64,000 bases of DNA from a virus (IMGVR_UViG_3300025030_001854:72839-136838), one strand, 5' to 3'. Shown: positions 952-43,325, counted from the first letter of the stretch. The notes: generated by a model not told the origin, from the sequence alone. Program-made: numbers and translations.

Positions 952-1404
952 TTAAGGAAAAAGATATAAGTCGGCAAAAGATATTTGGGCGACATTAGCT
1001 ATTTTTAATATTGTCGGGAGGATATCGCTATCTTTATTGTTTTGCCAAAATCCTCTCCAATATTGTAGGGCAACAGTTTCTCTATGAGCCCTTTTACATG
1101 GACATCCAACCCCAACCATATCTCTTGTTTGTACAAGAGTATCTAATGCTGTCTTTTGGGCCTCTGTAAAGAGTTCTCTTTGTGGTAAATACCAATCTGA
1201 GAAATCCCATAGATTATAAAATATAAGCATTCCTTCTGTCACCTTTTTGGGTTCTGGGAAAATTGGTTGTAAAAGAGAATTAAGTTCGTTTATAGATAAT
1301 GGAACTGGTTCGTCATTAACTTTAATCTCTTCAATTATTTGAGCTGGTTGAGTTTTAATTGGAGAAAGTTGATTTTTTATCCGTTGTCCGACAAACTCAT
1401 TCAT
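952..1404 (-). CDS. Hypothetical protein with GCPC motif
   Basis: 150-aa ORF, co-oriented and overlapping with its upstream neighbour, directly upstream of nrdJ. Confidence 0.6.
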   Translation of the reverse strand: MNEFVGQRIKNQLSPIKTQPAQIIEEIKVNDEPVPLSINELNSLLQPIFPEPKKVTEGMLIFYNLWDFSDWYLPQRELFTEAQKTALDTLVQTRDMVGVGCPCKRAHRETVALQYWRGFWQNNKDSDILPTILKIANVAQISFADLYLFP

Positions 1405-1744
1405 ATAGTTTTTTGATTATCCATCTAAAAAGGAAATACCCTAGTATTGATAATAATATATTTAAACCTAAAGTATAAAATGGTAAAAAAACTAATGATA
1501 AAATATTAATCCATACCCCAAAACAAATTGGACAATTTAACATTCGTGTTGGGAAACTGGGAAACTTATATTCTAAGAAGTCTGGATAACTTAATGGAGT
1601 CATACCCTTTTTACAATCTTCCTCATAAGGAGCATATTTTAAAAACTTTAGTCTAAATAACTTCGCCCACTCTATAAAAGCATTAGTATCAAACCAAATA
1701 TATAAAACAACTATAATAAAAGATATCCCATAAATTAATTCCAT
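1397..1744 (-). CDS. Small membrane protein with CPIC motif (DUF1360-like)
   Basis: Hydrophobic segments flanking LNCPICFGVW. Confidence 0.55.
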   Translation of the reverse strand: MELIYGISFIIVVLYIWFDTNAFIEWAKLFRLKFLKYAPYEEDCKKGMTPLSYPDFLEYKFPSFPTRMLNCPICFGVWINILSLVFLPFYTLGLNILLSILGYFLFRWIIKKLYE

Positions 1745-2010
1745 ATTTTAATTTTCCCTTTCGCCATTATATTTCGATTCTTTAAAAAAAGAATAGGTGT
1801 TCGCCACCAAAATATAACACAGTAACAATATACACAAAGAAGCCATCCATAGTTAGACAACCAAAAGTTTTTCTTATTCTACCGAAATTTTCTTGAATAT
1901 TTACAAATATTTGTGTATCTATTGTTGAAGAACAAAAACTAGCATAGTAAATACCTCACTATATATTTTAAAAAATATATTCTTTTAGCAGCTATGAACT
2001 ATGTATGAAC

Positions 2011-2440
2011 AAAAGGCGAAAATCCTTTTCAGCCCGCCGAGAAGACAACGGAAGGGTTTTCCCAAGTTGCCCTACCAAACTGGAGGGGAAAAGTAATAAC
2101 TAGGCCGCAGTTGGCACCCGGCGGCGACAAAGCTGAAGCCAATCAGACGCAATAAGGGACAGGCACCATTCATTGATGGTAAAAAAAGAGGCTATCTTAA
2201 TAAGATAGAAGTTGACAGGAATCCGCTAGACCTGAAAAGGTGAAATCGGAAGTATAAATGAGTTCTAGGCTCTCTCTCATCACCAATATTTATATTGGTA
2301 GCTTCTGGAAGCCGAAAGGCTATAAATCTCAATGCACTCTTCGCAAACTCCCGGCGAATTCAAAAAATATAACGGGACTTCAAGAATAGAGTCATTATTT
2401 TCCCTCTAGAGTTTTTTAATAAACTCTCTAGGGGGAAATT
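2011..2440 (+). ncRNA. Putative large structured non-coding RNA, family unknown
   Basis: ORF-free, GC-enriched intergenic island with about 12 complementary helices, two GAAA tetraloops, possible pseudoknots and a terminal 13-bp hairpin containing a G-U pair (see findings). Confidence 0.6.
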
Positions 2441-2554
2441 TCACCCGGTATATTTGCTTAAGAATTCATCATTAAGAGTCTACAAAAGAATTACGTTTAA
2501 AACTTTAATAAGACCATTCGTGAATATTTTACCCACTTCTACCGTCAAACTTTT

Positions 2555-2977
2555 ATGGAAATTATGGAAAACGAAGTCATGGCTGATATTGTAAAACGTC
2601 CTATAATTAAAGATTCAGGACAACGGGAAGATTTCTCAACTGGTTCAAAAAGAGACACCCGAAACGGTAAAGGGAGATTCGATTTACTTCCTTTGTTCGC
2701 TGAGGAAGAATTGGCTAAACATTTTGAGGCTGGGGCCGTAAAGTATGGAGACAATAATTGGCTAAAGGGCCAACCTTTATCCAGGTATTTAGATTCAGCT
2801 CGTAGACATTTAAATAAAGCCGCTAGAGGCCAACGAGACGAACCTCATTTTACTGCTGCCGCTTGGAATATTATGTGTCTTATTGACACTATGAAAAGAA
2901 TAGAACTTGGTCTTTTACCTGAAAGTTTAAATGACCTTTTACCAGTTTTACCAGAAGAAGTAGAAAAACTATTATGA
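2555..2977 (+). CDS. dATP/dGTP diphosphohydrolase domain protein (DUF5664-like)
   Basis: GKGRFDLLP...GAVKYGDNNW.KG...RYLDSARRHL...HFTAAAWN pattern. Confidence 0.8.
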   Translation: MEIMENEVMADIVKRPIIKDSGQREDFSTGSKRDTRNGKGRFDLLPLFAEEELAKHFEAGAVKYGDNNWLKGQPLSRYLDSARRHLNKAARGQRDEPHFTAAAWNIMCLIDTMKRIELGLLPESLNDLLPVLPEEVEKLL

Positions 2978-3597
2978 TTTCTCCTAATTTACTAATGATG
3001 GGTAAGTCTGATACTGAACTTATCCGATTAGTTAAAAATGACGCTGATAATGAAGCTATTTTAGAAGTATGCAGAAGATACGAGAATATTTTTTACAAAA
3101 TCTGCCAAAGATATTCTTCGTCTCTTACCAAGGTCGGAATTGACGTTAACGATATTTTCGATGAGAAGTATTATATTATTTTTTATTGTATCTGTTCATT
3201 CAAACCATCTAAAAAAACTAAACTCTCTACTTGGATAGGAAACTATGCCAGGTATCTTTGTCTTAATGCTATAAATTCTAAGAAATTTATTTTACCATCT
3301 TCCGATGAAGAAATTAAACAGAAAATCGAAGAGACTCAATGTAAGAACGTCTTTCTTAAAAATGAAGACAAACAAGGAGAGTATTCTTTTATTTTAAATA
3401 TTCTATCTCAACTCAAAGACCCTAGAATTTATAATGTATTTAATTTAAGATATTCTCATTTGCCAAACAAAATGATTTGGTCTAGAATAGCTTCATCGTT
3501 AGGTCTTTCTACTCAAACCGCTATCAACTTACATAATAAAGGATTGAGAATATTAAAAACTAAAATTAAAAGTAAAGATTTCTGTGATTTTATTTAA
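2974..3597 (+). CDS. Phage-encoded sigma70-family RNA polymerase sigma factor
   Basis: Region-2-like FKPSKKTKLSTWIGNYARY and region-4 HTH WSRIASSLGLSTQTAINLHNKGLRILK. Confidence 0.75.
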   Translation: MISPNLLMMGKSDTELIRLVKNDADNEAILEVCRRYENIFYKICQRYSSSLTKVGIDVNDIFDEKYYIIFYCICSFKPSKKTKLSTWIGNYARYLCLNAINSKKFILPSSDEEIKQKIEETQCKNVFLKNEDKQGEYSFILNILSQLKDPRIYNVFNLRYSHLPNKMIWSRIASSLGLSTQTAINLHNKGLRILKTKIKSKDFCDFI

Positions 3598-5878: not shown

Positions 5879-6208
5879 ATGGGACTATATTTATATCAAA
5901 ATCCAAACACAAAAGAGATTATTGAAGTCGTTCAAAAAATGAATGACGAGCATACGTTTTTTAAAGATGGAATAAATTGGATAAGATTATTTACTTCTCC
6001 ATGTCCAAAAATCGGAATTAATCCATTTTCTCAAGAAGACTGGAATAATCAAACTCGTAATACCAGGGGAACTATCGGAGATTTATGGGATAAATCGGCT
6101 GAATTATCAGAAAAAAGAGCTAAAAAAAGCGGTGGTATAGACCCAATTAAACAAAAAACTGCCGAAGCTTACAGAAAGAAAACTGGTAAACCTCATCCAC
6201 ACGAATAA
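5879..6208 (+). CDS. FmdB-like small phage protein (Cys-less variant)
   Basis: MGLYLYQNPNTKEIIEVVQKMND...W.RLFTSP resembles the FmdB N-terminus. Confidence 0.45.
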   Translation: MGLYLYQNPNTKEIIEVVQKMNDEHTFFKDGINWIRLFTSPCPKIGINPFSQEDWNNQTRNTRGTIGDLWDKSAELSEKRAKKSGGIDPIKQKTAEAYRKKTGKPHPHE

Positions 6209-7047
6209 TGAAAACTCTACAGAATTGCGGAAAATTGATAGTTAAAGAATCCCCAATAGAAGGATTTGGGGTCTTTGCCACAGAAGACATTCAAAAAGGG
6301 ACTATTCTTGAAGAAGTTCCTTTTGTTACCATTCCAAATTGGGCATCCTTTGGTAAAGCGTTATATGATTTTTTATCAACATCTGAATGGATGGGTGATA
6401 AAGTAAAATATACAGAAAATTTAAGAAAAAACTTGGGTTTTAAAGACCCAGAAAAATACTATTTTAAATGGTTTCCCCAGCATCAATTAGATAAGAGTCA
6501 AATTTCTTATACAGTTCTTCCTTTAGGATTTGGATGTATTTATAATAGTTCTAATACCCAGAACAACGCGGGTTGGGTTATTAAAGATAGTCTTTTTATA
6601 TTTAAAGCAGAAAAGGATATTCAAAAAGATGAAGAGGTAAAAACGTTTTATGGATATTTTTTAAGTGAAAATGGAACAATATTTAATTGCGATAATGTAT
6701 TTAATATTGGATTAGATATCATTAACGGAACTCTTAAATTAAAAATGTTTAGATTTAGTTCTATTGAAGTTTTTGAGGCAAGTCGGGTCCATCCAACATA
6801 TATTCGTGGTCAAAAAATGTTAGCAGATTCTAAAGACGGACTTTCAATTAAAAAAATATCTTCGTCTAACTCTCCTACTGAAGACCAACAAGCAGTAGAT
6901 GTTCCAGAAGTTGCTACACTACAGGATGTATATACAAGATTATCTGAATGTAAGAACCTTCCTAGAACTTTCTCTAGAATTCATATTGAATATACTAATA
7001 GAGAAGGAGAAATAGTTAAAGACGTTTTAGTATTTAAAAATTCTTGA
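6208..7047 (+). CDS. SET-domain protein (putative lysine methyltransferase) with C-terminal extension
   Basis: VKESPIEGFGVFATEDIQKG, GCIYNSS and FKAEKDIQKDEEVKTFYG motifs. Confidence 0.8.
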   Translation: MKTLQNCGKLIVKESPIEGFGVFATEDIQKGTILEEVPFVTIPNWASFGKALYDFLSTSEWMGDKVKYTENLRKNLGFKDPEKYYFKWFPQHQLDKSQISYTVLPLGFGCIYNSSNTQNNAGWVIKDSLFIFKAEKDIQKDEEVKTFYGYFLSENGTIFNCDNVFNIGLDIINGTLKLKMFRFSSIEVFEASRVHPTYIRGQKMLADSKDGLSIKKISSSNSPTEDQQAVDVPEVATLQDVYTRLSECKNLPRTFSRIHIEYTNREGEIVKDVLVFKNS

Positions 7048-7720
7048 TATCTTCGTGGTTTTTGTATTTGTATATTATTTCTATCCATTTAAAAAATTCT
7101 TTTTCATTCATATTCATTTTCATGGATTGTAAATCTTTGTGAATCCATTGTATATTATCTAATTCATAACCCTTAGAGGAATCTATTCTATCTAAAGATG
7201 CAGTTTGGTTTTTGTAATTTTTATAATTAATTTCTAAATTTATCGGTTCTCCAGATAAAGCACATTTTCCAAATTGTTTCTCAAACTGCTTCCAAGCATC
7301 TTTTATTGTTATATTGAAAGATAAATTTCGATGTTTCGCCCCACTTTTTACTCTCCAAAAATAGCTTCCATTTATTTTCCCATATCTCGTTAATTTTAAA
7401 CATCCACAACTTTTACATTCTCCATTTTTTAAATTTCTTAGTCTAACGATTTTAATGTTTCCACAATCACAAAGACATTCCCATTTAGACATATTATCTA
7501 CTGAATTTTTAACTCTTGATTTAATAATAAGTTTTCCGTATCGTAAACCTATATATTTTTTTAATGCTTCTTGAATATGCTCGTCACTGTTTCTAATTGG
7601 TATATTAAACTTTTTTAAATAATTTAATACCGTTGAATAACTTACTTTTAATTGAAAGGCAATATTCTTGCTACTGAGTTTTTGATTAATATATAATTCG
7701 TATAATAAATTTTTATCCAT
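7034..7720 (-). mobile_element. Freestanding HNH/His-Me homing-endonuclease-like gene
   Basis: N-terminal HTH, WECLCDCG...SCGC module, CALSG...SLDRIDSSKGYELDNIQW; antisense within a + operon. Confidence 0.75.
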
Positions 7721-28303: not shown

Positions 28304-29504
28304 AATTGAACAACCAGTAGATACATCTCAATTATCCAAGAATTTCCTATCAGCTATGCTGAATGGGTATAAAGATTCTCATTTTAATTTTGATTGTCAA
28401 AATCCAGTTATTATTAGTTCTGGTTCATTAAAATTAGATAACTATATTAAAGTAAAATCGGGTATGATATTAAGGATGGGTGGCCCAGCCGAAACAGGAA
28501 AGACCTCTCAATCTTTACTTTTTGCAGATAATTATATGAAGTCTTTGCCTAAAGCTAAGACTATTTATATTAATGCCGAAGCTAAACTAAGCGAAGAACT
28601 AAGAAAAAGGACATCTTTAAAATTTGTTACTGACCCTAACGAATGGGAATATGGAACAGTTTTCGTTCTTAATTCTAACTGTTTAGATACAATTTGTGAT
28701 GTTTTACATGGTCTTTATAAACAAACTCATGAAGCTGGAGAACATTTGGCTTGTGTTATCGACAGTGTAGACATGTTAATGTTAGCATCATCTTTAGATA
28801 AAAAGATGTCTGAATCTAAAAAACCGGCAGGCATTAATTTCCTAACGAAAGAACTTCTTCGTCGTTTATCTCACATGATAACTAATTATAATGGTTTCAT
28901 GATAATGATTACTCAATATAGTGCTACTTTTACCATGAGTATGTATGAGAAAGAAGCCCCAAATATCATGGATGGTAATCAAACCCACGCTCTAAATCAT
29001 CAAGCCTCATATGCTTTATACTATCGACCAAGAGCCGCTAGTCATTATATTTTAGAAACAGAAGGGGAAAGACCAGACCCAATTAAAAATCCTATTCTTG
29101 GTATTAATGTTAAAATTGAAATTAAAAAATCAGCTTCAGATAATACTGGATACACCATTGAAATTCCTATTAAAAAGGGAAAAGTGGGTAATGCTATTTG
29201 GGTAGAAAAAGAACTTTTTGATTCATTATTTTTATTAGGACTAGTATCAAAGAAAGGGGCTTGGATTGAACTTTCTGATATTGTGACGAAGTGGATTGAA
29301 GAAGTTAATCTTCCCATTATTGCTGAAAATGAAGAAATTCAAAAACATAATGAAAAAGCTAAAGAAGCAGAAAAATTACCACTTAAACCATTAATTGAAT
29401 ATAAGTCTAAGCATCAAGGACTTGTTCAATTTTCTGAATATTTTGAGGCTAATCCTCCTACATTAAATATTTTAATTAACAAAATTAAAACTCTTTACTC
29501 ATGA
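28287..29504 (+). CDS. recA: RecA/UvsX-like recombinase
   Basis: ISSGSLKLD, Walker A GPAETGKT, YINAE, VIDSV, GLVSKKGAW. Confidence 0.85.
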   Translation: MAKKDKIEQPVDTSQLSKNFLSAMLNGYKDSHFNFDCQNPVIISSGSLKLDNYIKVKSGMILRMGGPAETGKTSQSLLFADNYMKSLPKAKTIYINAEAKLSEELRKRTSLKFVTDPNEWEYGTVFVLNSNCLDTICDVLHGLYKQTHEAGEHLACVIDSVDMLMLASSLDKKMSESKKPAGINFLTKELLRRLSHMITNYNGFMIMITQYSATFTMSMYEKEAPNIMDGNQTHALNHQASYALYYRPRAASHYILETEGERPDPIKNPILGINVKIEIKKSASDNTGYTIEIPIKKGKVGNAIWVEKELFDSLFLLGLVSKKGAWIELSDIVTKWIEEVNLPIIAENEEIQKHNEKAKEAEKLPLKPLIEYKSKHQGLVQFSEYFEANPPTLNILINKIKTLYS

Positions 29505-29914
29505 GGCTATTTAATATTAATGGAAAATTAGTTACCAAAAACGTTACCAGATATTTAATTAAATGGGATAAAGCATGTAAATCTAAACTCCAATTTAAAG
29601 TTAAAAAATTTCTTAGACCTTTTTGGCGTCCATTTATTGTTTATGAAGAATTTCCGGTTTATGGAACACTTTTAAAAGTCGATATATTAAACGCTTCATT
29701 AAAAGTGGCTATAGAAGTTCAAGGGCCACAACATAATGAGTTTCATTATTTCCATGATGGAAAACCAGAATTATTCTTAGATTCCGTTAAAAGAGACTGC
29801 AAAAAAATGGAATGGTTAGAAAGAAATGGTTTTCAATTAATAGAAATTATGTATAATGAAGTAGATACACTATCAAAAGAATGGTTTAGACAAAAATTTA
29901 ATCTTATTCTCTAA
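29501..29914 (+). CDS. PD-(D/E)XK endonuclease (DUF559/Vsr-like)
   Basis: EEFPV...VD...AIEVQGPQH...RD..K..WL..NG..LIEI. Confidence 0.75.
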   Translation: MRLFNINGKLVTKNVTRYLIKWDKACKSKLQFKVKKFLRPFWRPFIVYEEFPVYGTLLKVDILNASLKVAIEVQGPQHNEFHYFHDGKPELFLDSVKRDCKKMEWLERNGFQLIEIMYNEVDTLSKEWFRQKFNLIL

Positions 29915-33689: not shown

Positions 33690-34469
33690 ATGTATTCTAC
33701 ATTGCCGTTGTTTAAAAGTCACTTTAGTTTGGGTAAAAGTATCCTAACTTTAGAAGCTCCGACTTGTAAAGAATCTTATCCTGTTTCTATTTTTGACCTT
33801 CTCGTAGCTAATAAATTAAAAATTCTTCCATTGGTTGATGATAATATTAGTGGCTTACTACAAGCGAGTAAAAACGCCAAAGAAAATAAAATTAAACTAA
33901 TGTTTGGTTTAAGACTCTTCTTTACCGAAGATTGTTTAAATCAAAATGAGGATTCGCTTAAAAAGCGGGCAAGATATATAATATTTGCTAAAAATCCAAA
34001 TGGCTATAAAGACCTACTTCGTCTTTGGTCTTTTGCAGCGAAAGATGGATTTTATTATACTCCATGTTTAGATTTTAAACAATTGAAAAAATTATGGACA
34101 GATAATCTTTCTTTGGTGGTTCCATTTTATGATTCTTTTCTTTATTTAAATACTTTTTATTCGCACCAACACGTTCCAGATTTTTCTTTTACTTCTCCCG
34201 TTTTTCTCCAAGAAGATAATAATTTGCCTTTTGATTCGCTATTATTAAATAGAGTGATAGACTTTACTACATCGAAGAAATTCCCAATCATGCCAGCTCA
34301 AAGTATCTATTATAAAAATGAAGATGATTTTTTGGCTTATATCACTTTTAGATGTATCCATAATCGAGGCCATTCTTCCAAATCGACCGTAGAAAGACCT
34401 GAACTAGACCACATGGGAAGTAATACATTTAATTTTAAAAGATGGTTAAAAAATAATCAAACCGCATGA
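33690..34469 (+). CDS. Stand-alone PHP domain of DNA polymerase III alpha
   Basis: FKSHFSLGKS, KLMFG, IFAKNPNGYKDL.RL.S.A..DGFYYTP.LD. Confidence 0.85.
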   Translation: MYSTLPLFKSHFSLGKSILTLEAPTCKESYPVSIFDLLVANKLKILPLVDDNISGLLQASKNAKENKIKLMFGLRLFFTEDCLNQNEDSLKKRARYIIFAKNPNGYKDLLRLWSFAAKDGFYYTPCLDFKQLKKLWTDNLSLVVPFYDSFLYLNTFYSHQHVPDFSFTSPVFLQEDNNLPFDSLLLNRVIDFTTSKKFPIMPAQSIYYKNEDDFLAYITFRCIHNRGHSSKSTVERPELDHMGSNTFNFKRWLKNNQTA

Positions 34470-34972
34470 AAATATTCGACTTTAATGAACAATTACCTAT
34501 TGGGAAAACAGGAGAATTAATCTTTTCTCAAATTTATAAGAATTTAAATATCAAATTATCAGAAGATAAACGGTGGGATTTTGAACTTGGTGATAAAATC
34601 AAAATTGAGTTAAAAACCGACACATATAATATGGAAGCTACTGAAAACTTTTTTATGGAATTATATAGTGATTCAGATAAGGGAACTTTAGGCGGTCCAT
34701 GGAGAGCCCTTTCTGATGGGGTTGAATATTTTGTTTATTTTTATATTTCCAATGGAACATTTTTTTGGTTTAAAACGCAAGAATTATGTAATGCCTTAGA
34801 AAATATTATTGCTCAATTTAATTTAAAATTAAAGGCTATCAGTAATAAGGGATGGACTACCCAAGGATATCTCATAAATAGAGATTTATTAAAAAATGTA
34901 ATATGTCAATTAGATGTAGTTCCTTCGAATGAACCAAAAACAGACCCAGACGACTCCAACCCACCCTTTTAA
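34466..34972 (+). CDS. PD-(D/E)XK nuclease-like protein
   Basis: GKTGE...WDF...IELKTD...NFFME. Confidence 0.65.
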   Translation: MKIFDFNEQLPIGKTGELIFSQIYKNLNIKLSEDKRWDFELGDKIKIELKTDTYNMEATENFFMELYSDSDKGTLGGPWRALSDGVEYFVYFYISNGTFFWFKTQELCNALENIIAQFNLKLKAISNKGWTTQGYLINRDLLKNVICQLDVVPSNEPKTDPDDSNPPF

Positions 34973-34973
34973 T

Positions 34974-35621
34974 ATGGAAGATAACCTATTACGATATGAT
35001 AAAAAATCAGTATTTACTTTTATTGATTTAGAGACATTTAATTTATGTCTTAACTTTATATTTAATCGCCCTTGGCAAGTTGGGATTATTCAGGTTAAGG
35101 GAGATAAAATTATTGACTCCCAAGATATTAGAGTTAAATGGCCAGATTCCCCCCATTTATCTATAGGCAGAGAGGCGGCAGTAATTACTAGATTCAATCC
35201 AGAAGAACATGAAAAATTAGCTATCTTGCCAGAAGAGGCTTTTAAAATATTTTGGCCAATGCTTGTAAATTCTGATTATATTATTATGCATAATGGTCTT
35301 AGGTTTGATTTATATTTATTAAAGGGATTCGCGGAAATGATGGGTGTCGATTGGAAATTCATAATGAACAAGGTGATTGATACTAAATCTGTTGCTCAGG
35401 GAATTAAAATGAATATTCCTTATAGAAAAGCAGATGGAACTTTTTTGGAGTATCAATATAGAATGGCAAATGCAGTTGTTAAGGGAATTAAAACTAATCT
35501 TACCGCTCTTGGAAAAGAATATGGAATAGAACATGATTACGAACAACTCCATCATGCGATTAATGATTTGCTATTAAATTTAAAAGTCTGGGATAAGTTA
35601 AAATATCAATTGGATTTATGA
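34974..35621 (+). CDS. DEDDh 3'-5' exonuclease (DnaQ/epsilon-like)
   Basis: FIDLET, HNGLRFD, IDT, LHHAIND; likely start ATG 34974. Confidence 0.85.
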   Translation: MEDNLLRYDKKSVFTFIDLETFNLCLNFIFNRPWQVGIIQVKGDKIIDSQDIRVKWPDSPHLSIGREAAVITRFNPEEHEKLAILPEEAFKIFWPMLVNSDYIIMHNGLRFDLYLLKGFAEMMGVDWKFIMNKVIDTKSVAQGIKMNIPYRKADGTFLEYQYRMANAVVKGIKTNLTALGKEYGIEHDYEQLHHAINDLLLNLKVWDKLKYQLDL

Positions 35622-36013
35622 ATATTAAATTTAGAATATGGTCTTTTAATCTAAAAGGATGGATAAACGATTTATTTCTTGAGAATTTAGGATTCATTTA
35701 TTCTCAAACTTTAAATAGTTATCTTAAAAACTTACAGTTTAATAAATCTATTTGTATCCAGCAATTTACTGGCCTAGTAGATAAAAATGGAAAAGAAATT
35801 TACGAAGGAGATATTGTAACCACTCATCATTATGATGATTGGGATGATAATGAAGGATTCGATGTTATCAACATGGTAAAATGGTGCCCAATTCACGTAG
35901 GATGGAGAGGATTTACAAAAGAAATAGAGAAAAAATCTTATGCTGGAAATAAATTATCCAAACCGATAACTATCATTGGTAATATTTTCGAAAATCCACA
36001 ATTATGCAAGTAA
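35618..36013 (+). CDS. YopX-family phage protein
   Basis: IKFRIW...QFTGLVDKNGKEIYEGDIV...IIGNIFENP. Confidence 0.9.
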   Translation: MNIKFRIWSFNLKGWINDLFLENLGFIYSQTLNSYLKNLQFNKSICIQQFTGLVDKNGKEIYEGDIVTTHHYDDWDDNEGFDVINMVKWCPIHVGWRGFTKEIEKKSYAGNKLSKPITIIGNIFENPQLCK

Positions 36014-38577
36014 ATGAATTTATAAACGATTTTGAATCAATGGAGGTTCCCATTCTTGGGGTTCGACTTCCAGAATTCGCTATTGAAGAGAAATATTTAA
36101 AAGCAGTTGGTTTAAAATTAGGAACATCTAATTATGATTTTCTTCGAGCTTTATGTATTGAGGGGTTTAAGAAACTAAAAATATCTAAATCTAACCCAAA
36201 TTATCAAATTTATGGAGATAGAGTTAAACACGAACTTGGAATTCTTTCCGAATTAGGATTTGTTGATTACCTATTATTAGTATGGGATGTCATTAATTAT
36301 TGTAAAGAAAATGATATTCCGACTGGTTTGGGTCGAGGAAGCGCGGCAGGAAGTCTTGTCCTTTATCTTATTGGTGTCACTAAAATAGACCCTATTAAAT
36401 ACGGACTCTATTTTGAAAGATTCGTGTCTAAAATTAGAGCTAAAAAACAAATCTTTGACGGAATTACCTATTTAGACGGTTCGTTAATGTGCGATGTGGA
36501 TTTGGATATCTGCTACTATAATCGTCCAAAAGTATTAGCTTATTTGGATAAGAAATTTGCCGGAAAAACATCTAAGATTCTTACATTTAATACTTTATCA
36601 GCTAAATTGGTTATTAAAGAGGTCGGTAAGATTCTAGGTGGAGTTCCAGAAGAAGAAATGACTCATGTTACAAGTATGATTCCTAAACAGCATGGAATCT
36701 TGGAGGATTTAGATGTTGCCTATGAAAAAGTGGGAGAATTTAAAGAATGGTGTGATACTCATAGTCTTGTTTATTCTGTAGCTTTAAAATTAAAAGACCT
36801 TATTAAAAATAAGGGGGTTCATCCATCAGGAATTATGATTACTCATGGAAACCTACTAGATTCTTGCCCCACAGAACTTTCTTCAGAAAAGGAAATTGTT
36901 TCTTCCTATGACATGAACTGGGTGTCATTATTTTCTGTTAAGTTAGATGCTTTGGGTTTACGTGGAGTGTCGGTCGTAGATGATATATGTAAACAATTAG
37001 GAATTAAGGTCGAAGACATAGATTTAAATGACCCAATTATATATCAGAGCCTACAAAGTTTGAAATACCCACAAGGTCTATTCCAATTAGAGGCTGACCT
37101 ATGCTTTAAAACAACCCAAAAAGTTAAACCAAAGAATATGCAAGAATTAAGTGCTATTCTTGCTGTCGCCCGTCCTGGTGCGATGCAATTTATTGACAAG
37201 CTCGCTCTGTATACAACAACTGGAACTATTGACAGTATTCATCCATTTTTTGAAGATATTTTAATAGAAACTGGTGGGGTTGCCCTATATCAGGAGCAGT
37301 TAATGAAAATGGCTAATAAAATTGGTTTCACCTTGGATGAAGCCGAAATTTTAAGGAGAATTGTAGGAAAAAAGAAAGTTGACGAAGTTAAAAAATGGAA
37401 AAGTAAAATTGAAGAAAAAGTAAAAGAGCAAGGACTTGATAAAGAAATAGGAGAAATCTTATGGAAGATTTTGGAAGATTCGGCAAGTTATTCATTCAAC
37501 AAGAGCCATAGTGTAAGTTATGCTGCATTGGCTGCTTTAACAGTCTACTTAAAATTCAAATATCCAACAAATTTCTTCTTGTCTCTTCTTTCTATGAGTC
37601 AACATGAACCTGACCCCATAGGAGAAATAGCTAAAATCCATAAAGAAATGCAATATTTTAATATTAAATTGCTTTCTCCAAGCTTATCTTATTCCCAAAT
37701 TAAATTTACTATTGAAGGAAAAGATATTCGTTTCGGTCTTTCTTCTATTAAGGGCATTGCCGAAAAAACAATTGAAAAACTTAATAATTTTAAACGAGAA
37801 CATGCCAATAAATTTGAATTATTTGAATCTGCGAAAGAAGCCGGTCTAACAATCGGAGTCCTCTCCGCTCTTATTCAGGCTGGAACACTGTCTAAATTTG
37901 GCGATAAAAGAGCATATTTAGTCTATGAGGCTCAATTATGGAACCTTCTTAAACCGAAAGAAAAACAAAACGCTATTTCTTTAGCTTTAAAGTATGATTA
38001 TAAATTAATTCCCATTGTTAAAGCGTTAAATCAGGTTCATAAAGATGAAAAAGGACGACCTTTAATCAAGGATTCAAGAATGGCAACTATAAAAAAGGGT
38101 TCAGAAAGATATAAAAATATTTTTGAACTAAATGATGTATGTGCTGATTTCGCTAACTGGTGGTATGAAAAACGATTATTGGGTTATGTTTCCGACAAGC
38201 ACTTAATTGATATATTCTTATCCAAAAAAAGTTCATTATCCCCCATTAATGAAATATTAGAATTGCCAGAGGATTCTTACGTTGATTTTATTGGTCATAT
38301 TGATGAAAATCCTACGCTTGGAACTTCTAGGACAGCTAGAAAAAGCAAATATGCCAAATATCAAATCAGTGACGAAACAGGGACCGTTAAAGTCATGATT
38401 TTTAATGATTCTCTTGAAGAATGTAAAACTTTAAATGGAGTTCTTCCTAAACAAGAAGATATCGTAATTGTAAGCGGAAGGAAAAAGGGGGATGATACTA
38501 TTTTCGCCCGCTTAATTGCTGTTCAACAAAATGTAATTTATACAAAACTTTCAGAATTAAAAGACCCAACAGTTTAA
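36004..38577 (+). CDS. dnaE: DNA polymerase III alpha catalytic subunit lacking PHP domain
   Basis: GRGSAAGSLV, FERF, DVDLD, HPSG, KLDALGL, YQEQ, FNKSH, IRFGLSSIKG, C-terminal OB fold. Confidence 0.93.
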   Translation: MQVNEFINDFESMEVPILGVRLPEFAIEEKYLKAVGLKLGTSNYDFLRALCIEGFKKLKISKSNPNYQIYGDRVKHELGILSELGFVDYLLLVWDVINYCKENDIPTGLGRGSAAGSLVLYLIGVTKIDPIKYGLYFERFVSKIRAKKQIFDGITYLDGSLMCDVDLDICYYNRPKVLAYLDKKFAGKTSKILTFNTLSAKLVIKEVGKILGGVPEEEMTHVTSMIPKQHGILEDLDVAYEKVGEFKEWCDTHSLVYSVALKLKDLIKNKGVHPSGIMITHGNLLDSCPTELSSEKEIVSSYDMNWVSLFSVKLDALGLRGVSVVDDICKQLGIKVEDIDLNDPIIYQSLQSLKYPQGLFQLEADLCFKTTQKVKPKNMQELSAILAVARPGAMQFIDKLALYTTTGTIDSIHPFFEDILIETGGVALYQEQLMKMANKIGFTLDEAEILRRIVGKKKVDEVKKWKSKIEEKVKEQGLDKEIGEILWKILEDSASYSFNKSHSVSYAALAALTVYLKFKYPTNFFLSLLSMSQHEPDPIGEIAKIHKEMQYFNIKLLSPSLSYSQIKFTIEGKDIRFGLSSIKGIAEKTIEKLNNFKREHANKFELFESAKEAGLTIGVLSALIQAGTLSKFGDKRAYLVYEAQLWNLLKPKEKQNAISLALKYDYKLIPIVKALNQVHKDEKGRPLIKDSRMATIKKGSERYKNIFELNDVCADFANWWYEKRLLGYVSDKHLIDIFLSKKSSLSPINEILELPEDSYVDFIGHIDENPTLGTSRTARKSKYAKYQISDETGTVKVMIFNDSLEECKTLNGVLPKQEDIVIVSGRKKGDDTIFARLIAVQQNVIYTKLSELKDPTV

Positions 38578-41500
38578 ATCAAATTTTTTGATACTAAACA
38601 TATAGGTAATCCTTCTGTCGCGAAAGCACTATTTAATAAATCTTCTTGAAGGGTTACCCTTGTTCCTCTTCCTGAAGTTATACATTTTCCACTATTTATA
38701 ATAGCATCAGTTGAAACAGAATCATACATCTGAAACTGATTAGATATTCCATATTGTTTAGATATATCTGGATTTTTTAAACCATTAGGTAACGGTTGTC
38801 CCCTAGATGCGGAAAAAATCATAGCACTATTAGTAAAGGTTAATCCGTCGTCAGGGGGCATTATTTCTATGGTTTCTCCAGGATTTAAAATCTCAATTGA
38901 ACTAAATGCTGGCCATAAAAGTTTGTTGTAATTTTCTGGATATGTCATAAACATTCCACTATATTCTTGGTAATCTGTAATTCTAAGTCCTGGTTTTCTT
39001 TGTTTCATGATTGATGGCGCTTCTAATACTGGACGATTAGTAGTAGAAGTTGGTTCAATAAAAAATTTGGGGTTTAATCTTGATAAAACTGGGGACATAT
39101 ATACTGGGTCATATAGTGGTTTGAGTTCGTCTCCCGAAGAAATATTTTCTAATATAATTCCCTCGGTGAATATAGCTGTATCGGCTTGACCTAAATACCC
39201 CATTTCTCCAGAGACGACACAATAACCAGAAGGATTAATAATATGTAAATCTTCATATGGAATAGCTTTATATTCTATAGAAACATTTTTAAAAGTAAAT
39301 GAAATTCTTACTCCCTCTCTATATCCGCTAATATCCATTCCCTGTCGTCTTTGTCTACATCTTTTAGACCAATATTCTTCTACGGTATCTGAAGAATCAT
39401 ATATAAAATTATCAAAAGAGTCTATTCTTCCATAGCCTGTAAACCGACTTTCGTCGTCTGGTTGAGGATAAAGTTTACCTGTTCTAGAAAAAGTAACAAA
39501 AGTATGAGAACCCTTGAGTCCCTCAAAACCATTAGAATGTGGAATAACAAATTTTAATTCTAGTCCATTATTAGGAAAATTATGGATATTTAACCAATCA
39601 CGTTCTCCTTTATGGAAATTAAGATGATAGTTTTCTCCATTTAGGGTTTTTCTTGCTTTAAGTGTTAATTTGCCCGAAGGAACTCCCTTTTTTGTTTCTG
39701 CCAAATGTCCATCTTCAATATATCCATCTCCACCCACCGTTGGATTGGAATAAACATTTATATGTAATGGATAACCAGCCTTAATAACTGAAACAATAGA
39801 GTAATTAGCATATCTTCCACCTTCTTCTAATTTTAGTCCACTAATAATATACTGACTTTCTTTCGTAGGGTCGTCAGTGCAATTAGGATTATCAGCATAC
39901 ATCTGTGAAACTTTTCTATTATTTACATATAGGTCAGTAAATCCTTGCACACTATTAGGATACATTAAACCGATTTCTACATCTCTATCAAACGGACCAA
40001 TAGTTATACCTGAAGAATCATACCATTCGCCGATAGATGAGGTTTTATTAATAATTGGGAATAAAGTTGATAAATCAAATTCTAAATACATTCCACTTCT
40101 AAAAGTAGTAATGAGATTCCCAGTATATCCTATTTTTGCATACTGAATAACAGAGCTGCTAGTAAACGGTAGAGGTAACGAACCAGTATATCCCAGTGGA
40201 TTATATCTTAATGAAGAAGCCCAAATAACTGTCCCTGTTGGAGAACTATTAAATAATAAAATTCCATCATCATCTTCTGGAGTTCTAAAACACTGATAAT
40301 CATAACATGGATAATCATCACTTCTATCTCGACAATAAATACTATAAGTTTGAGCTGAAAAGCCCAACCAAGCATCACCAATTATTTCGCGAGAATGATA
40401 TCCACCCTGCCCAGAGGCAGAATATAAACCATAATTTAATAACTCTTCTTGTCGTCCCCCAATATATTCAAAAAATAATGGGTCTTTTCCTGTCTCTATA
40501 TCAAATCGTTGGTCATTATTATCTGTAATTTGACAGGTCTGAGAGTAATAATCAGCAAATGTAGAATTAATCCCAGGAGTCATTCCCAACCTACCAGAAT
40601 TAATATTAAAAATAGGAGGAGTATAAATTAATTCTACTTCATCAGTAAACGCATCGTAAGCATGAAATAGTCCCAAAGATAATGGCCGCAAATCATATGT
40701 ATAAATATAATGTTCTGAATCTAAACCTGTAAACCATTTATGAGTCCAAACATCATATCCTGTAAGATAATATCCGTTTTCAAAATAGGTATTTATATCT
40801 GCATCTAAATTAAAGGTAGTATTATTTTTTCCAGAAGGAACAAATCCTTTATAAAGTGGAGCCCATTGATTATTAACCAAATTAATTCCTAGTCGTTTTT
40901 GAAATGGTTGGTCAACTTTTTTATTATTAATATCTAGAGATGACCATCCGACATCATTTGTTTCGAATATTTTGGTCATGATAGGGGCATTATTTGGATA
41001 TGCTAATCCCCCTAATCCATCTGGACGTTTTACTGGAATATATTTAATATTAGATGAGACTGTTCCATCAGAATTGATATGATATACCCCAAAAATTTCT
41101 TTTACCACTTCTTCTCTTACCTCTAAATTAAATTTTACTTTATAAGGAAATCCTCTAAGTTTTCCTACATATAAAGCATTAGCTCCTAATGCTTGTGGAT
41201 ATAAAAACTTACGATTTTCCGTATTAAATGGACCACTAGTAAATCTTGGAAGATAGTTGTCTGATGACTGAGTGGCCATGATTCTAGGAAATTCGTTTTC
41301 CATATCTTCTGGCAATGGAGAAAATGAAGACCATCCAGTATATTTAATATTACTTGTTTCTGGGAAGCTATTGTCCAAATAATAATATTCTCTTTGAATA
41401 CCTGATTCGTCAAATGCTATTTTTTTCACCAATCCAACTGTTTGCCCATTAACTAAATATCCACTAATAAATGTAATTGTCTTAACGTCGTCACCAATAA

Positions 41501-43325
41501 TATCTTCTTGATAGCTATCAATAATATTATTTAATTCAATAATTTGTCCACCACCACTTAATAAATAACCAGTATATTCAAAATGGGAATTTTTTAAAAC
41601 TTTAGAAACCAAACTATATTTTCCCTCAAAGAAATCACCCATAGAAAAAAATTGTTTAGTTATTTCGTCTCTATTGTTAAGTTCAGCAGAACCTATTTTG
41701 GTATAAAATTTAGCCCTTGCCCCATTTTCAGAATAACCATAAGTATTATTATCTTCTCCCGTCGCAATAGGAAAAGAAGAAACCGAATTACTTCTAGACG
41801 ATTCTGAGGAATAGCTCGCCCCTTTGGATGAAGTTTGAGATGGAAATAAAACGATTTTTGCCCTACTTCCAAATGTTTGATTATCAAATGTTTGAAAAAA
41901 AGCTAAAGCAGGTAAAGAACTAAATTCACTGGGTTGCGGTGGACCAAAATACCAATATTGTTTACCAAAACTTTCATTCCAGGTTTGTAAATCGTCCCCA
42001 ACCAAAGTTCCGTTATGAATAGGATTATGAGAATCAATAGTTAGCATTCTTTTGGATATATTTCCTGTATTACAAACCGGATTTGCCAAGAAATATTGAT
42101 AGTCTTCTTTATTTAAACCCTCTTCAGAAACAAATAATGGAGAAAATTTCCATCCAGTAAAATTAGAAGAAGCACAAGTAACACATTTAACTTCATCTGA
42201 GCACTTGATAACAGACCCAGTAAATCCTATGTGCATTGACTGGGCAACATTGGTGCAGTCCATAGATGCTGGACTTTTAGCGTATTCTTGGTATAACCCT
42301 ATTCTTCCAGGACTATCTGTTCTAACTGAAGACGAAGTAACCTTCACATTATTACCATTATTATCTACTTCATAGGAATAAAGTGTTCTTCTATTATGAT
42401 GCCAATCAGAAACCGGCATTCCAGATTTGTCGAAATGAATATAAGCATTTTTTACGTCAGAATTAAAATCTCCAGAAGATGGCGGTCCATCGTTGAAAAT
42501 CCTGTGAAATTTTATATTAGGCACTGGTCCGATATAAGATTTTGGGTCGCGACAAGGCACTGTTCTTAAATATGTAAAGGAAATTGGCTGACCATTAGCT
42601 CCTATAATATTAACATTATCTTCTACACAATCACTAACATCATCCCCAATAGCATCATAAAGTAATTCTCCAGATACATAATAATACTGATTTTCTATGT
42701 CTTTCAATATTTGGAGATTAGGTTGATGAAAAATTTTACTAGTATCATACCAATTATAATTTGATACTTCTGATTCTTTATTTCTATCTGACGTAGCAAT
42801 ATATGCAATAGTAGAAGAATAATCATTTGACAATAAAGATTCCACGGCACTAATAGAAAATGGATGAATTACTTCTCCTGTTCTTGTCGTTTCGAATGGA
42901 CTATTCTCGAAAACAATACTTCCAATATTATTTAATACTTGTCCTATAACTTTAGATAATGTTGAAATTTTGACCCCACCAGCCCCAATCATACAGTAAC
43001 CAAAAATAATAGCATGAGCAGCAATATTTAATAATTCTCTTTCATTTTCTGTATTATCTGGCAGATAGTTATTAATAATATATGCCATCGAACTTTCATA
43101 ATTTTTATAAGTAGAGGTCTGAGAAAAACCCACCGTATTTTCAATATCAGAATCTTCTTGCAGATAATTATAAAAATCATCCCCGGCATCCTGTCCAAGA
43201 TTAAAACCAGCCGCCATAGCCATGCACATCTTATTCCTAAACCCTTTTTTATTTAAAACGGCTAAACGAATATATACGGCAGATATACTTAAACCAAAAA
43301 TTGTTCTTAGACCATTATCTTCCAT
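38574..43325 (-). CDS. 1583-aa hypothetical, probable virion protein
   Basis: Very long ORF rich in G/S/T/Y/N, in the minus-strand late-type block; no enzyme motifs recognised. Confidence 0.6.
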   Translation of the reverse strand: MEDNGLRTIFGLSISAVYIRLAVLNKKGFRNKMCMAMAAGFNLGQDAGDDFYNYLQEDSDIENTVGFSQTSTYKNYESSMAYIINNYLPDNTENERELLNIAAHAIIFGYCMIGAGGVKISTLSKVIGQVLNNIGSIVFENSPFETTRTGEVIHPFSISAVESLLSNDYSSTIAYIATSDRNKESEVSNYNWYDTSKIFHQPNLQILKDIENQYYYVSGELLYDAIGDDVSDCVEDNVNIIGANGQPISFTYLRTVPCRDPKSYIGPVPNIKFHRIFNDGPPSSGDFNSDVKNAYIHFDKSGMPVSDWHHNRRTLYSYEVDNNGNNVKVTSSSVRTDSPGRIGLYQEYAKSPASMDCTNVAQSMHIGFTGSVIKCSDEVKCVTCASSNFTGWKFSPLFVSEEGLNKEDYQYFLANPVCNTGNISKRMLTIDSHNPIHNGTLVGDDLQTWNESFGKQYWYFGPPQPSEFSSLPALAFFQTFDNQTFGSRAKIVLFPSQTSSKGASYSSESSRSNSVSSFPIATGEDNNTYGYSENGARAKFYTKIGSAELNNRDEITKQFFSMGDFFEGKYSLVSKVLKNSHFEYTGYLLSGGGQIIELNNIIDSYQEDIIGDDVKTITFISGYLVNGQTVGLVKKIAFDESGIQREYYYLDNSFPETSNIKYTGWSSFSPLPEDMENEFPRIMATQSSDNYLPRFTSGPFNTENRKFLYPQALGANALYVGKLRGFPYKVKFNLEVREEVVKEIFGVYHINSDGTVSSNIKYIPVKRPDGLGGLAYPNNAPIMTKIFETNDVGWSSLDINNKKVDQPFQKRLGINLVNNQWAPLYKGFVPSGKNNTTFNLDADINTYFENGYYLTGYDVWTHKWFTGLDSEHYIYTYDLRPLSLGLFHAYDAFTDEVELIYTPPIFNINSGRLGMTPGINSTFADYYSQTCQITDNNDQRFDIETGKDPLFFEYIGGRQEELLNYGLYSASGQGGYHSREIIGDAWLGFSAQTYSIYCRDRSDDYPCYDYQCFRTPEDDDGILLFNSSPTGTVIWASSLRYNPLGYTGSLPLPFTSSSVIQYAKIGYTGNLITTFRSGMYLEFDLSTLFPIINKTSSIGEWYDSSGITIGPFDRDVEIGLMYPNSVQGFTDLYVNNRKVSQMYADNPNCTDDPTKESQYIISGLKLEEGGRYANYSIVSVIKAGYPLHINVYSNPTVGGDGYIEDGHLAETKKGVPSGKLTLKARKTLNGENYHLNFHKGERDWLNIHNFPNNGLELKFVIPHSNGFEGLKGSHTFVTFSRTGKLYPQPDDESRFTGYGRIDSFDNFIYDSSDTVEEYWSKRCRQRRQGMDISGYREGVRISFTFKNVSIEYKAIPYEDLHIINPSGYCVVSGEMGYLGQADTAIFTEGIILENISSGDELKPLYDPVYMSPVLSRLNPKFFIEPTSTTNRPVLEAPSIMKQRKPGLRITDYQEYSGMFMTYPENYNKLLWPAFSSIEILNPGETIEIMPPDDGLTFTNSAMIFSASRGQPLPNGLKNPDISKQYGISNQFQMYDSVSTDAIINSGKCITSGRGTRVTLQEDLLNSAFATEGLPICLVSKNLI

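Follow-up and report, generated by a model that had tools for sequence, protein, structure and literature searches.

What fills the one long gap between genes in the right-hand part of the genome of virus IMGVR_UViG_3300025030_001854, and what might it do for this phage? We analysed the right-hand 64 kb of the 136.8-kb IMG/VR record (71% complete by estimate, GC content 33%); this whole 64,000-nucleotide stretch is called the window, and positions are counted from its first letter unless they are given as genome positions. Region 1745-2554 is the sole gap of at least 300 nt without an open reading frame (ORF) of at least 70 amino acids (aa) in the window part of the genome, in agreement with an initial annotation that had described it as the longest ORF-free gap. 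The GC enrichment noted there was also found (0.48 at 2001-2200, compared to a genome mean of 0.334 with a standard deviation of 0.05 in 200-nt windows). TAA, TAG and TGA all occur in each of the six frames of the gap; thus, stop-codon recoding and a hidden gene were ruled out. By comparison with homologues, window 2011-2438 (+ strand) encodes a genuine structured RNA with 13 helices (P1-P12 and a terminal hairpin) and one pseudoknot. It represents a previously uncatalogued family, the members of which are 330-430 nt long and come from one clade of large, uncultivated phages of aquatic habitats.

The fold of a single sequence alone settles nothing without homologues: the folding excess of the element over shuffles is modest and alike on both strands (z of -2.72 and -2.86). 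A blastn comparison with 50,697 deposited phages gave no match to the element. Loci around relatives of the dGTP diphosphohydrolase and of the ribonucleotide reductase (RNR), both encoded near the gap, contained neither a homologue of the RNA nor a syntenic gap, and the two enzymes are not markers of the RNA-bearing clade. Two 18-mers from the window, compared to IMG/VR, gave 0 matches and 5 chance matches inside ORFs. A search with the DnaE-like DNA polymerase identified six large IMG/VR contigs (61-63% identity). Blastn over five of these six whole records detected short collinear matches in two, and homology was borne out by MAFFT alignment. The gene order common to these relatives is a membrane-protein gene on the left, a gap, and a sigma factor gene on the right.

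A search with a sigma-protein alignment retrieved 8 viral and 38 metagenome loci. Using iterated nhmmer, we identified the element in 21 of the 28 loci having at least 1,400 nt upstream of sigma, and also found it cut off at contig ends in L070 and L095 (labels of this form denote the contigs or loci of relatives compared in the analysis). After removal of three duplicates, there are 20 distinct homologues besides the window. One of them, L058, is a divergent member (covariance model E=0.0036 with filters off; nhmmer 6e-11 for the 3' half). All homologues are located between a leftward gene for a 115-aa membrane protein and a rightward sigma-factor operon, and the order promoter, RNA, hairpin, 0 to 2 variable genes, sigma was found in every one. 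The genes between the RNA and sigma vary (e.g., a hydrolase in the window, a P-loop kinase-like ORF in L051 and L056, none in L053 and L057).

Among the 28 loci, nhmmer did not detect the element in seven (L055, L065, L087-L090 and L092). Several of these related contigs have the same flanking genes and an ORF-free gap of similar size with no detectable RNA (L065 1478-1917, L055 1554-2106, L092 1503-1884 and L088 608-1198). In L065 the TTGACA promoter is kept and is followed by unrelated singleton sequence without folding excess (z of +0.87 and -0.48). L087-L090 share another conserved gap sequence.

The DnaE-like polymerase is less than 30% identical to that of any deposited phage, and thus the clade is without a cultured relative. 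Near-identical DNA is present in groundwater, soil and freshwater metagenome runs, and one homologue is on a contig labelled as an ocean survey scaffold. A 27-nt degenerate pattern of helix P8 gave a single match in GTDB, scanned with one genome per prokaryotic species (33 nt, without the flanking genes, and judged to be chance), and in IMG/VR the same pattern recovered only three loci already in the set. By this prokaryotic pattern scan, the family was not seen outside the phage clade.

The evidence for the RNA is covariation. With RNAalifold on a plain MAFFT alignment of 15 sequences, we identified 23 pairs, 18 of them with compensatory change; this fold already contains P3, P7, P8 and the base of the terminal hairpin, and two of its helices are long-range. 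Three partial covariance models (core, 5' domain and 3' domain) were built and then used to realign the members. For the core (P5-P9; 19 sequences), 89.4% of cells are paired compared to 64.3% in shuffles, a value reached by 0/500 shuffles; 22 of the 27 pairs are compensatory, and covariation is 0.661 versus at most 0.118 when slid. The 5' domain (P1-P3b; 17 sequences) is 86.7% paired versus 68.3% (0/500 shuffles reach this), with 17 of 26 pairs compensatory and covariation of 0.454 versus at most 0.104 when slid. The 3' domain (P10-P12 and the pseudoknot; 12 sequences) is 71.2% paired versus 53.9% (again 0/500), and 15/18 of its pairs are compensatory. Alignments fitted with covariance models are biased towards the modelled structure, and the MAFFT-only result agrees with them. 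Compensatory substitutions in homologues thus exceed both shuffled and slid controls, as is expected of structured noncoding RNAs (ncRNAs) in general. The initial annotation had named an absence of covariation among the findings that would count against it; what we found is strong covariation.

Helices were mapped to the window from the covariance model alignment and by direct reading of the sequence, and all are on the + strand. In the 5' domain, hairpin P1 (AAAAGG/CCTTTT, 2011-16/2024-29) is 92.7% paired, with compensatory change in 3 of 6 pairs, and hairpin P2 (CCG/CGG around an A-rich loop, 2037-39/2049-51) is 85.9% paired (3/4 compensatory). The long-range helix P3, identified by RNAalifold, joins CCC to GGG (2061-63/2156-58) and GTTGC to GCAAT (2066-70/2149-53); it is 83.1% paired, and 6/8 of its pairs are compensatory. 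Enclosed by P3 are P3a (2071-76/2082-86) and P3b (GCTGA/TCAG-A-C, 2132-36/2143-48; 86.7% paired). The alignment also places within P3 a 45-nt insertion of the window (2087-2131) with its own GCCGC/GCGGC hairpin (2104-08/2121-25). This insertion is missing from 13 of the 14 other aligned sequences, and L056 carries its own. The L056 insertion (about 1360-1440) is longer and unrelated, and is likewise located at or near P3a in the 5' domain.

At P4, P10, P11, P12 and the pseudoknot, the columns of the plain MAFFT alignment do not keep register. For this reason hairpin P4 (ACCAT/ATGGT, 2165-69/2176-80) was read from the alignments without a formal count; by reading, its variants are CCAT/ATGG, CTCG/CGAG and CTG/CAG. 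In the core, hairpin P5 (CTATCTT/AAGATAG, 2192-98/2202-08) is 91.2% paired with all 6/6 pairs compensatory, and its loop is of the GNRA type in most relatives. The inner part of P6 (ACCT-GAAA-AGGT, 2230-33/2238-41) is 96.1% paired (3/3 compensatory), and its outer part (TCCG/CGGA, 2222-25/2247-50) is 68.4% paired, in a register that differs among members. P7 (GAAGT/GCTTC, 2249-53/2301-05; 98.9% paired, 4/5 compensatory) closes a three-way junction with P8 and P9. P8 (ATGAG/CTCAT, 2258-62/2276-80) has a conserved loop and is 92.6% paired (5/5 compensatory), and P9 (ACCAATA/TATTGGT, 2282-88/2293-99) is 83.5% paired (3/5 compensatory).

The covariance model of the 3' domain did not pick up this domain in the window at E<=0.01, and P10-P12 of the window rest on direct reading. 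Hairpin P10 (AGCC-GAAA-GGCT, 2310-13/2318-21) is 80% paired, with 4/5 pairs compensatory, in 12 relatives (the window is not in this alignment). P12 (AATG-C-AC/GT-CATT, 2331-37/2391-96) closes the domain, which includes P11 and the pseudoknot; it is 63.8% paired (5/6 compensatory), and in 8 of 15 sequences its duplex is more stable than shuffled ones at p<=0.05 (p=0.48 in the window itself). P11 (TTCGC/GCGAA, 2340-44/2354-58) is 60.4% paired (4/4 compensatory), and its loop TCCCG pairs with CGGGA (2349-53/2373-77) in a pseudoknot that is 88.9% paired. The strands of the pseudoknot exchange polarity among members (CUCCCG/ACGGGAC in the window, CGCCCCU/UGGGGCC in L064 and UGGCUGU/UCAGCCC in L078). 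The terminal hairpin, of 13 bp in the window (2399-2411/2426-2438), is present in 15/15 sequences, and its basal pairs covary. Many unpaired bases are invariant in the alignments.

Much of this fold had been proposed in the initial annotation: the hairpins P1, P4, P5, P6 (inner and outer), P8, P9, P10 and P11 and the terminal stem are kept in relatives with compensatory changes, and the first of its two pseudoknots is the one described above. The second (CTAGA with TCTAG) has 50.6% of cells paired versus 53.1% in shuffles, without compensatory change, and was abandoned. The long-range 5' pairs suggested there (TTCAGC 2028-33/GCTGAA 2132-37 and CCGCCG 2034-39/CGGCGG 2119-24, as well as TTTTCCC/GGGAAAA and AGTT/AACT) belong only to the minimum free energy fold of the single sequence. 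They are unsupported in the family because they use the insertion at 2087-2131; the family has P2, P3 and P3b instead. The + strand assignment was correct, given the upstream promoter and the GNRA loops on that strand and an excess of G-U over A-C cells (55 versus 34, in an alignment fitted to the + strand). On the whole, what the initial annotation observed is partly confirmed, and its interpretation is supported.

Selection on the element is also apparent between strains. In a variant strain (one run) there are 46 differences in 768 positions of the coding flank 1000-1779 and at most 3 in 230 positions of the element (2011-2110 plus 2133-2262); positions of differences within 2233-2440 are not itemised in this comparison. 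As judged from these counts, the RNA element is under selection and far more conserved than the coding flanks in the variant strain. One strain difference, 2030 C>T, was considered as a G-U-preserving change and dropped, as 2030 is unpaired and variable in the family model.

The RNA is not a member of a catalogued family. Rfam 15 gave 0 matches over the whole window at gathering thresholds, and the families covered include those whose signatures the initial annotation had been unable to match (RNase P, tmRNA, group I/II introns and cobalamin) as well as T-box, 6S, SRP, GOLLD, ROOL, OLE, raiA and HEARO. At E<=10, we found 6 chance-level matches in 1750-2650 (miRNA, snoRNA and sRNA models, E 2.6-9.7). 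ARAGORN identified no tRNA or tmRNA in the window, and the RNA does not qualify as a tmRNA. The novelty proposed in the initial annotation therefore stands with respect to Rfam 15, and we class the RNA as a new family of a broad kind that is already known, the large structured RNAs of phages and bacteria. No description of it came up in full-text literature searches or in text from PMC10690425 and the 2026 Minerva preprint. The catalogue of 8,495 short IMG/VR candidates in PMC10690425 may contain a fragment of the RNA, its alignment archives being outside that search.

How is this RNA transcribed, and with what? The left border of the locus in all relatives is the divergent 115-aa membrane-protein gene (1397..1744, - strand), for which tblastn matches of 33-40% identity were found in 8/8 viral loci. 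On the right is a downstream operon (2555..3597, + strand) with a dATP/dGTP diphosphohydrolase-like gene (2555-2977; Pfam PF18909, 8.9e-23) and a sigma-factor-like gene (2974-3597; Sigma70_r2 weak, 5e-4; PHROG sigma factor, 7.5e-7), and in every relative a conserved sigma gene follows downstream of the RNA. All genes switch from the - strand to the + strand at this locus, and the + strand block behind the RNA is ~36 kb long.

In 9 of 14 relatives, P1 is preceded at a distance of 5-12 nt by the end of a strong promoter of the form TTGACA/TTGACT-N17/18-TAnnAT. Behind the hairpin and ahead of the following gene, only 1/14 relatives has a promoter of the sigma-70 type, and it is weak; the scan detects sigma-70 -35/-10 sites only. 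The next gene starts just 14-53 nt behind the hairpin in L078, L083 and L069. A promoter directly upstream, with downstream genes mostly without their own in the sigma-70-type scan, is the arrangement of an attenuation leader. Thus, we infer that the RNA is, at least physically, the 5' leader of the operon carrying sigma, so that the leader proposed in the initial annotation gains support from the promoter layout. From the same layout, the RNA is always predicted to be the first transcribed element of the rightward gene block in relatives. A conserved TATTATA(G/A)A is present ~10-20 nt left of the -35 in L051, L053, L054, L056, L086 and L068, and reads TATAAT on the - strand. This suggests a putative pair of divergent early promoters placed back to back, one for the leftward block and one for the rightward block.

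The terminal hairpin looks like a terminator or attenuator. In all 15/15 sequences it has about 10-22 bp (dG -13.9 to -27.1), and the tail behind it is pyrimidine-rich. At least 5 U in the first 8 nt past the stem were counted by script in 4/15; in 6/15 the counted tail follows a small downstream hairpin rather than the main stem.

A 16-nt direct repeat (DR) is located either side of the terminal hairpin, with a spacing of 77-80 nt. In the window (+ strand), the left copy, DR-L (CAAGAAT...TCATTAT, 2381..2398), overlaps the 3' strand of P12, and the right copy, DR-R (2450..2478), is in the block TATATTTGCTTAAGAATTCATCATTAAGAG, which is conserved in relatives. Repeat pairs were identified in L051 (1695-1710/1772-1787), L057 (2361-2376/2439-2454) and L086 (805-820/885-900). 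The two copies are more alike within a genome than between genomes (mean score 2.71 versus -1.17; 0/5000 permutations). As the conserved DR-R block is just past the hairpin, selection acts on read-through transcripts or on the DNA there. Two roles were rejected for DR-R: pairing with the 5' strand of P12 in place of its usual partner (complementarity in 1/15) and a repeated phage promoter (it occurs once in the window). A Bacteroidota -7 box is likewise at odds with the spacing, as is a sigma-54 -12/-24 site, and the promoter of the RNA itself is of the classical -35/-10 kind. None of the explanations tried accounts for the direct repeats.

The reading that we tentatively favour, with a probability of about 0.4, is that the sigma operon has this RNA as its 5' leader and that the RNA acts in cis on read-through past the long hairpin. 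The target of the RNA would be the host RNA polymerase that is transcribing it, or a factor that the RNA recruits, and the RNA would set the amount of transcription passing the hairpin. It would thus be an attenuator or a platform for processive antitermination, timing or dosing sigma and the ~36 kb of + strand genes, and transcripts stopping at the hairpin would leave a discrete RNA of ~430 nt.

We looked for an alternative pairing that could open the hairpin, with two candidates covered by the test: the pseudoknot region against the basal 12 nt of the 5' arm of the hairpin, and DR-R against the 5' strand of P12. The first beats shuffles at p<=0.05 in 0/15 sequences, and the pseudoknot strand was rejected as an antiterminator. 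No antiterminator pairing having been found, cis control, if any, is more likely processive, as in put and lambda Q, than riboswitch-like. Phage HK022 has put RNAs, which are cis-acting processive antitermination RNAs of about 70 nt with two stem-loops. Like them, the RNA described here is structured and is located behind an early promoter and ahead of the first terminator in an early operon, and it could act on its own polymerase without an alternative hairpin, which fits the negative antiterminator result. It differs in having 330-430 nt, 13 helices and a pseudoknot and no sequence or model similarity to put. In lambda, the constitutive promoter PR' is followed by a short terminated leader (6S), the terminator tR' and a very long operon that depends on read-through with Q. 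The arrangement of promoter, leader, terminator-like hairpin and long operon is alike; the lambda leader, in contrast, lacks a conserved ornate fold, and in lambda a protein loaded at the DNA exerts the control.

Several observations weigh against cis control of read-through. No sigma-70-type promoter passed the scan before P1 in the window itself, where the presumed promoter and start region (1990..2010, + strand) is weak, its -10 being TATGTA-like and a good -35 being absent. Behind the hairpin there could be a promoter of a different type, such as one for the phage's own sigma, and L086 and L068 have TATAAT ~30 nt before the next gene. The U-tract after the hairpin is poor in the window (3 U in 8), and the negative antiterminator result also counts here. 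No RNA run was found among the sequencing runs that contain the locus, and transcript ends are those predicted from the sequence. In seven of the 28 related loci the RNA is undetectable although the synteny or the sigma gene is retained. Further, known cis antitermination RNAs are far smaller, and a fold of 13 helices in which many unpaired bases are invariant would be more usual in a ribozyme, a ribonucleoprotein (RNP) scaffold or a riboswitch.

The size of the RNA and its many invariant unpaired bases in fact fit a trans-acting RNA about equally well. Nearly as likely as cis control is an independently functioning, stable early ncRNA with a promoter and terminator of its own, whether RNP scaffold, ribozyme or decoy aimed at a host factor or at defence; sigma would then be expressed via leaky read-through. 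The element is a discrete unit with a promoter, a very stable hairpin and, in several members, a U-rich tail; the negative antiterminator result also speaks for a product of this kind. The phage already carries stable RNAs, namely 12-13 tRNAs and a tmRNA (genome 70557-70942, L010:10557-10942, - strand, 1.9 kb before the window start; 109.8 bits with Rfam). GOLLD and ROOL, both in Rfam, and OLE resemble the RNA in size, complexity and invariant unpaired bases more than known leaders do. GOLLD and ROOL are large ornate phage-associated RNAs (10.1101/2024.12.08.627333); like the RNA described here they are multi-helix and phage-borne, of unsolved function, and in genomes that also have tRNAs. In contrast, our RNA is smaller, lacks an Rfam match and has a fixed operon-leader position beside a sigma gene. 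A trans-acting role gives the conserved DR-R block past the hairpin no function, and the U-tract is weak in about half of the members, the window included. Downstream genes without recognisable promoters imply that the RNA is part of the operon transcript at least sometimes, and sigma is the only consistently adjacent candidate for a gene of a partner protein.

The element could belong to a new class of large catalytic or polymerase-reprogramming RNA, which we regard as unlikely but worth stating. One form would be a device made of RNA alone, several times the size of put and transcribed first by the phage, that brings about read-through of the hairpin and the 36-kb block by converting the host polymerase or by recruiting the sigma of the phage. 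Another form would be a new ribozyme, the product of which is released at the hairpin. The co-evolving direct repeats would then belong to an undescribed mechanism of switching or processing.

A ligand-sensing riboswitch or a T-box-like leader, the terminal hairpin of which would form or not depending on a bound metabolite or tRNA, is improbable. T-box and cobalamin riboswitches are likewise long structured 5' leaders with a pseudoknot and a terminator-like hairpin at the end. Here the pseudoknot adjoins the hairpin, many unpaired bases are conserved, and neighbouring genes function in nucleotide metabolism (RNR, dGTP diphosphohydrolase and the P-loop kinase-like ORF of L051). However, no riboswitch or T-box model matches even at E<=10, and neither candidate for alternative pairing is general (0/15 for the pseudoknot region with the 5' arm of the hairpin, 1/15 for DR-R with P12). 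The gene immediately downstream varies, and riboswitch aptamers are not known to reach the size of this RNA. The GGC loop is not a binding site for tRNA-CCA, because the strands of the pseudoknot exchange polarity among members.

Equally little can be said for a primary role at an origin of replication, either through a transcript that primes or opens it (as in ColE1 RNA II or the T4 R-loop type) or with the DNA itself as origin or protein-binding site, the DNA element that the initial annotation had allowed for. The cumulative GC skew of the whole genome has its global minimum at genome 74-75 kb, which is the RNA locus and the gene strand switch, and the two co-evolving 16-nt repeats, 77-80 nt apart, surround a long palindrome. 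Given the skew minimum, an origin role added to that of the RNA is conceivable. The skew minimum is expected from the strand switch alone, however, and the 13 helices with their compensatory changes, the G-U pairs and the GNRA loops reflect constraints on RNA; an origin does not explain the compensatory changes. The GC-rich element also contains no iteron array and no AT-rich unwinding block. Like ColE1 RNA II, the RNA is structured, several hundred nt long and made where a putative origin is located; the difference is that an origin role here is based only on the GC-skew minimum.

We dismiss the idea of a chance fold, a decayed gene or a small ORF, for which one might cite the modest folding excess on both strands and two ORFs of 43 aa (2258-2389, +) and 46 aa, given the strong covariation in 20 other distinct contigs, the conservation far beyond that of coding flanks in the variant strain, and, in the 43-aa frame, indels that are not multiples of three and codon 2 changes that are the compensatory partners of P8.

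Other features of the genome were noted. Further to the left of the locus, on the - strand, are a 150-aa ORF and the 867-aa RNR. In five related contigs (L012 and L014-L017) the stretch that matches RNR is 3.7-3.9 kb long rather than 2.6 kb, which suggests an intein or intron insertion. The tRNAs are all on the - strand at genome 40.6-60.6 kb; between them are many gaps of 300-1000 nt without ORFs, and several of these gaps are rich in GC (e.g., genome 58023-58553, GC 0.44). The DnaE-like DNA polymerase (33690-38577, +) appears to be split into an N-terminal piece (33690-34469) and a main part (36004-38577); both match phrog_405, and one of the three ORFs between them is exonuclease-like. Two giant ORFs without a PHROG match, of 1583 aa (38574-43325, -) and 1580 aa (43328-48070, -), are adjacent to each other, and the run of PHROG-unmatched - strand ORFs continues after them to 63963. 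We also identified a SET-domain protein (6208-7047, +; Pfam 6.1e-9) and two HNH endonuclease genes, one alone on the - strand within the + block (7034-7720) and one directly behind a UvsX-like recombinase gene (29501-29914, +).

Few bacterial or phage RNAs of more than 300 nt have this many conserved helices and a pseudoknot, and those that have been solved are ribozymes, RNP cores or riboswitches. The fold defined by covariation is good enough for direct in vitro transcription, probing or cryo-EM. The position of the RNA is telling: it is predicted to be transcribed first, from the early promoter at the main strand switch, directly ahead of the phage's own sigma. The RNA probably bears on the timing of the hand-over of transcription from host to phage. 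As the clade has no cultured member, it is one of the few handles on regulation in these phages.

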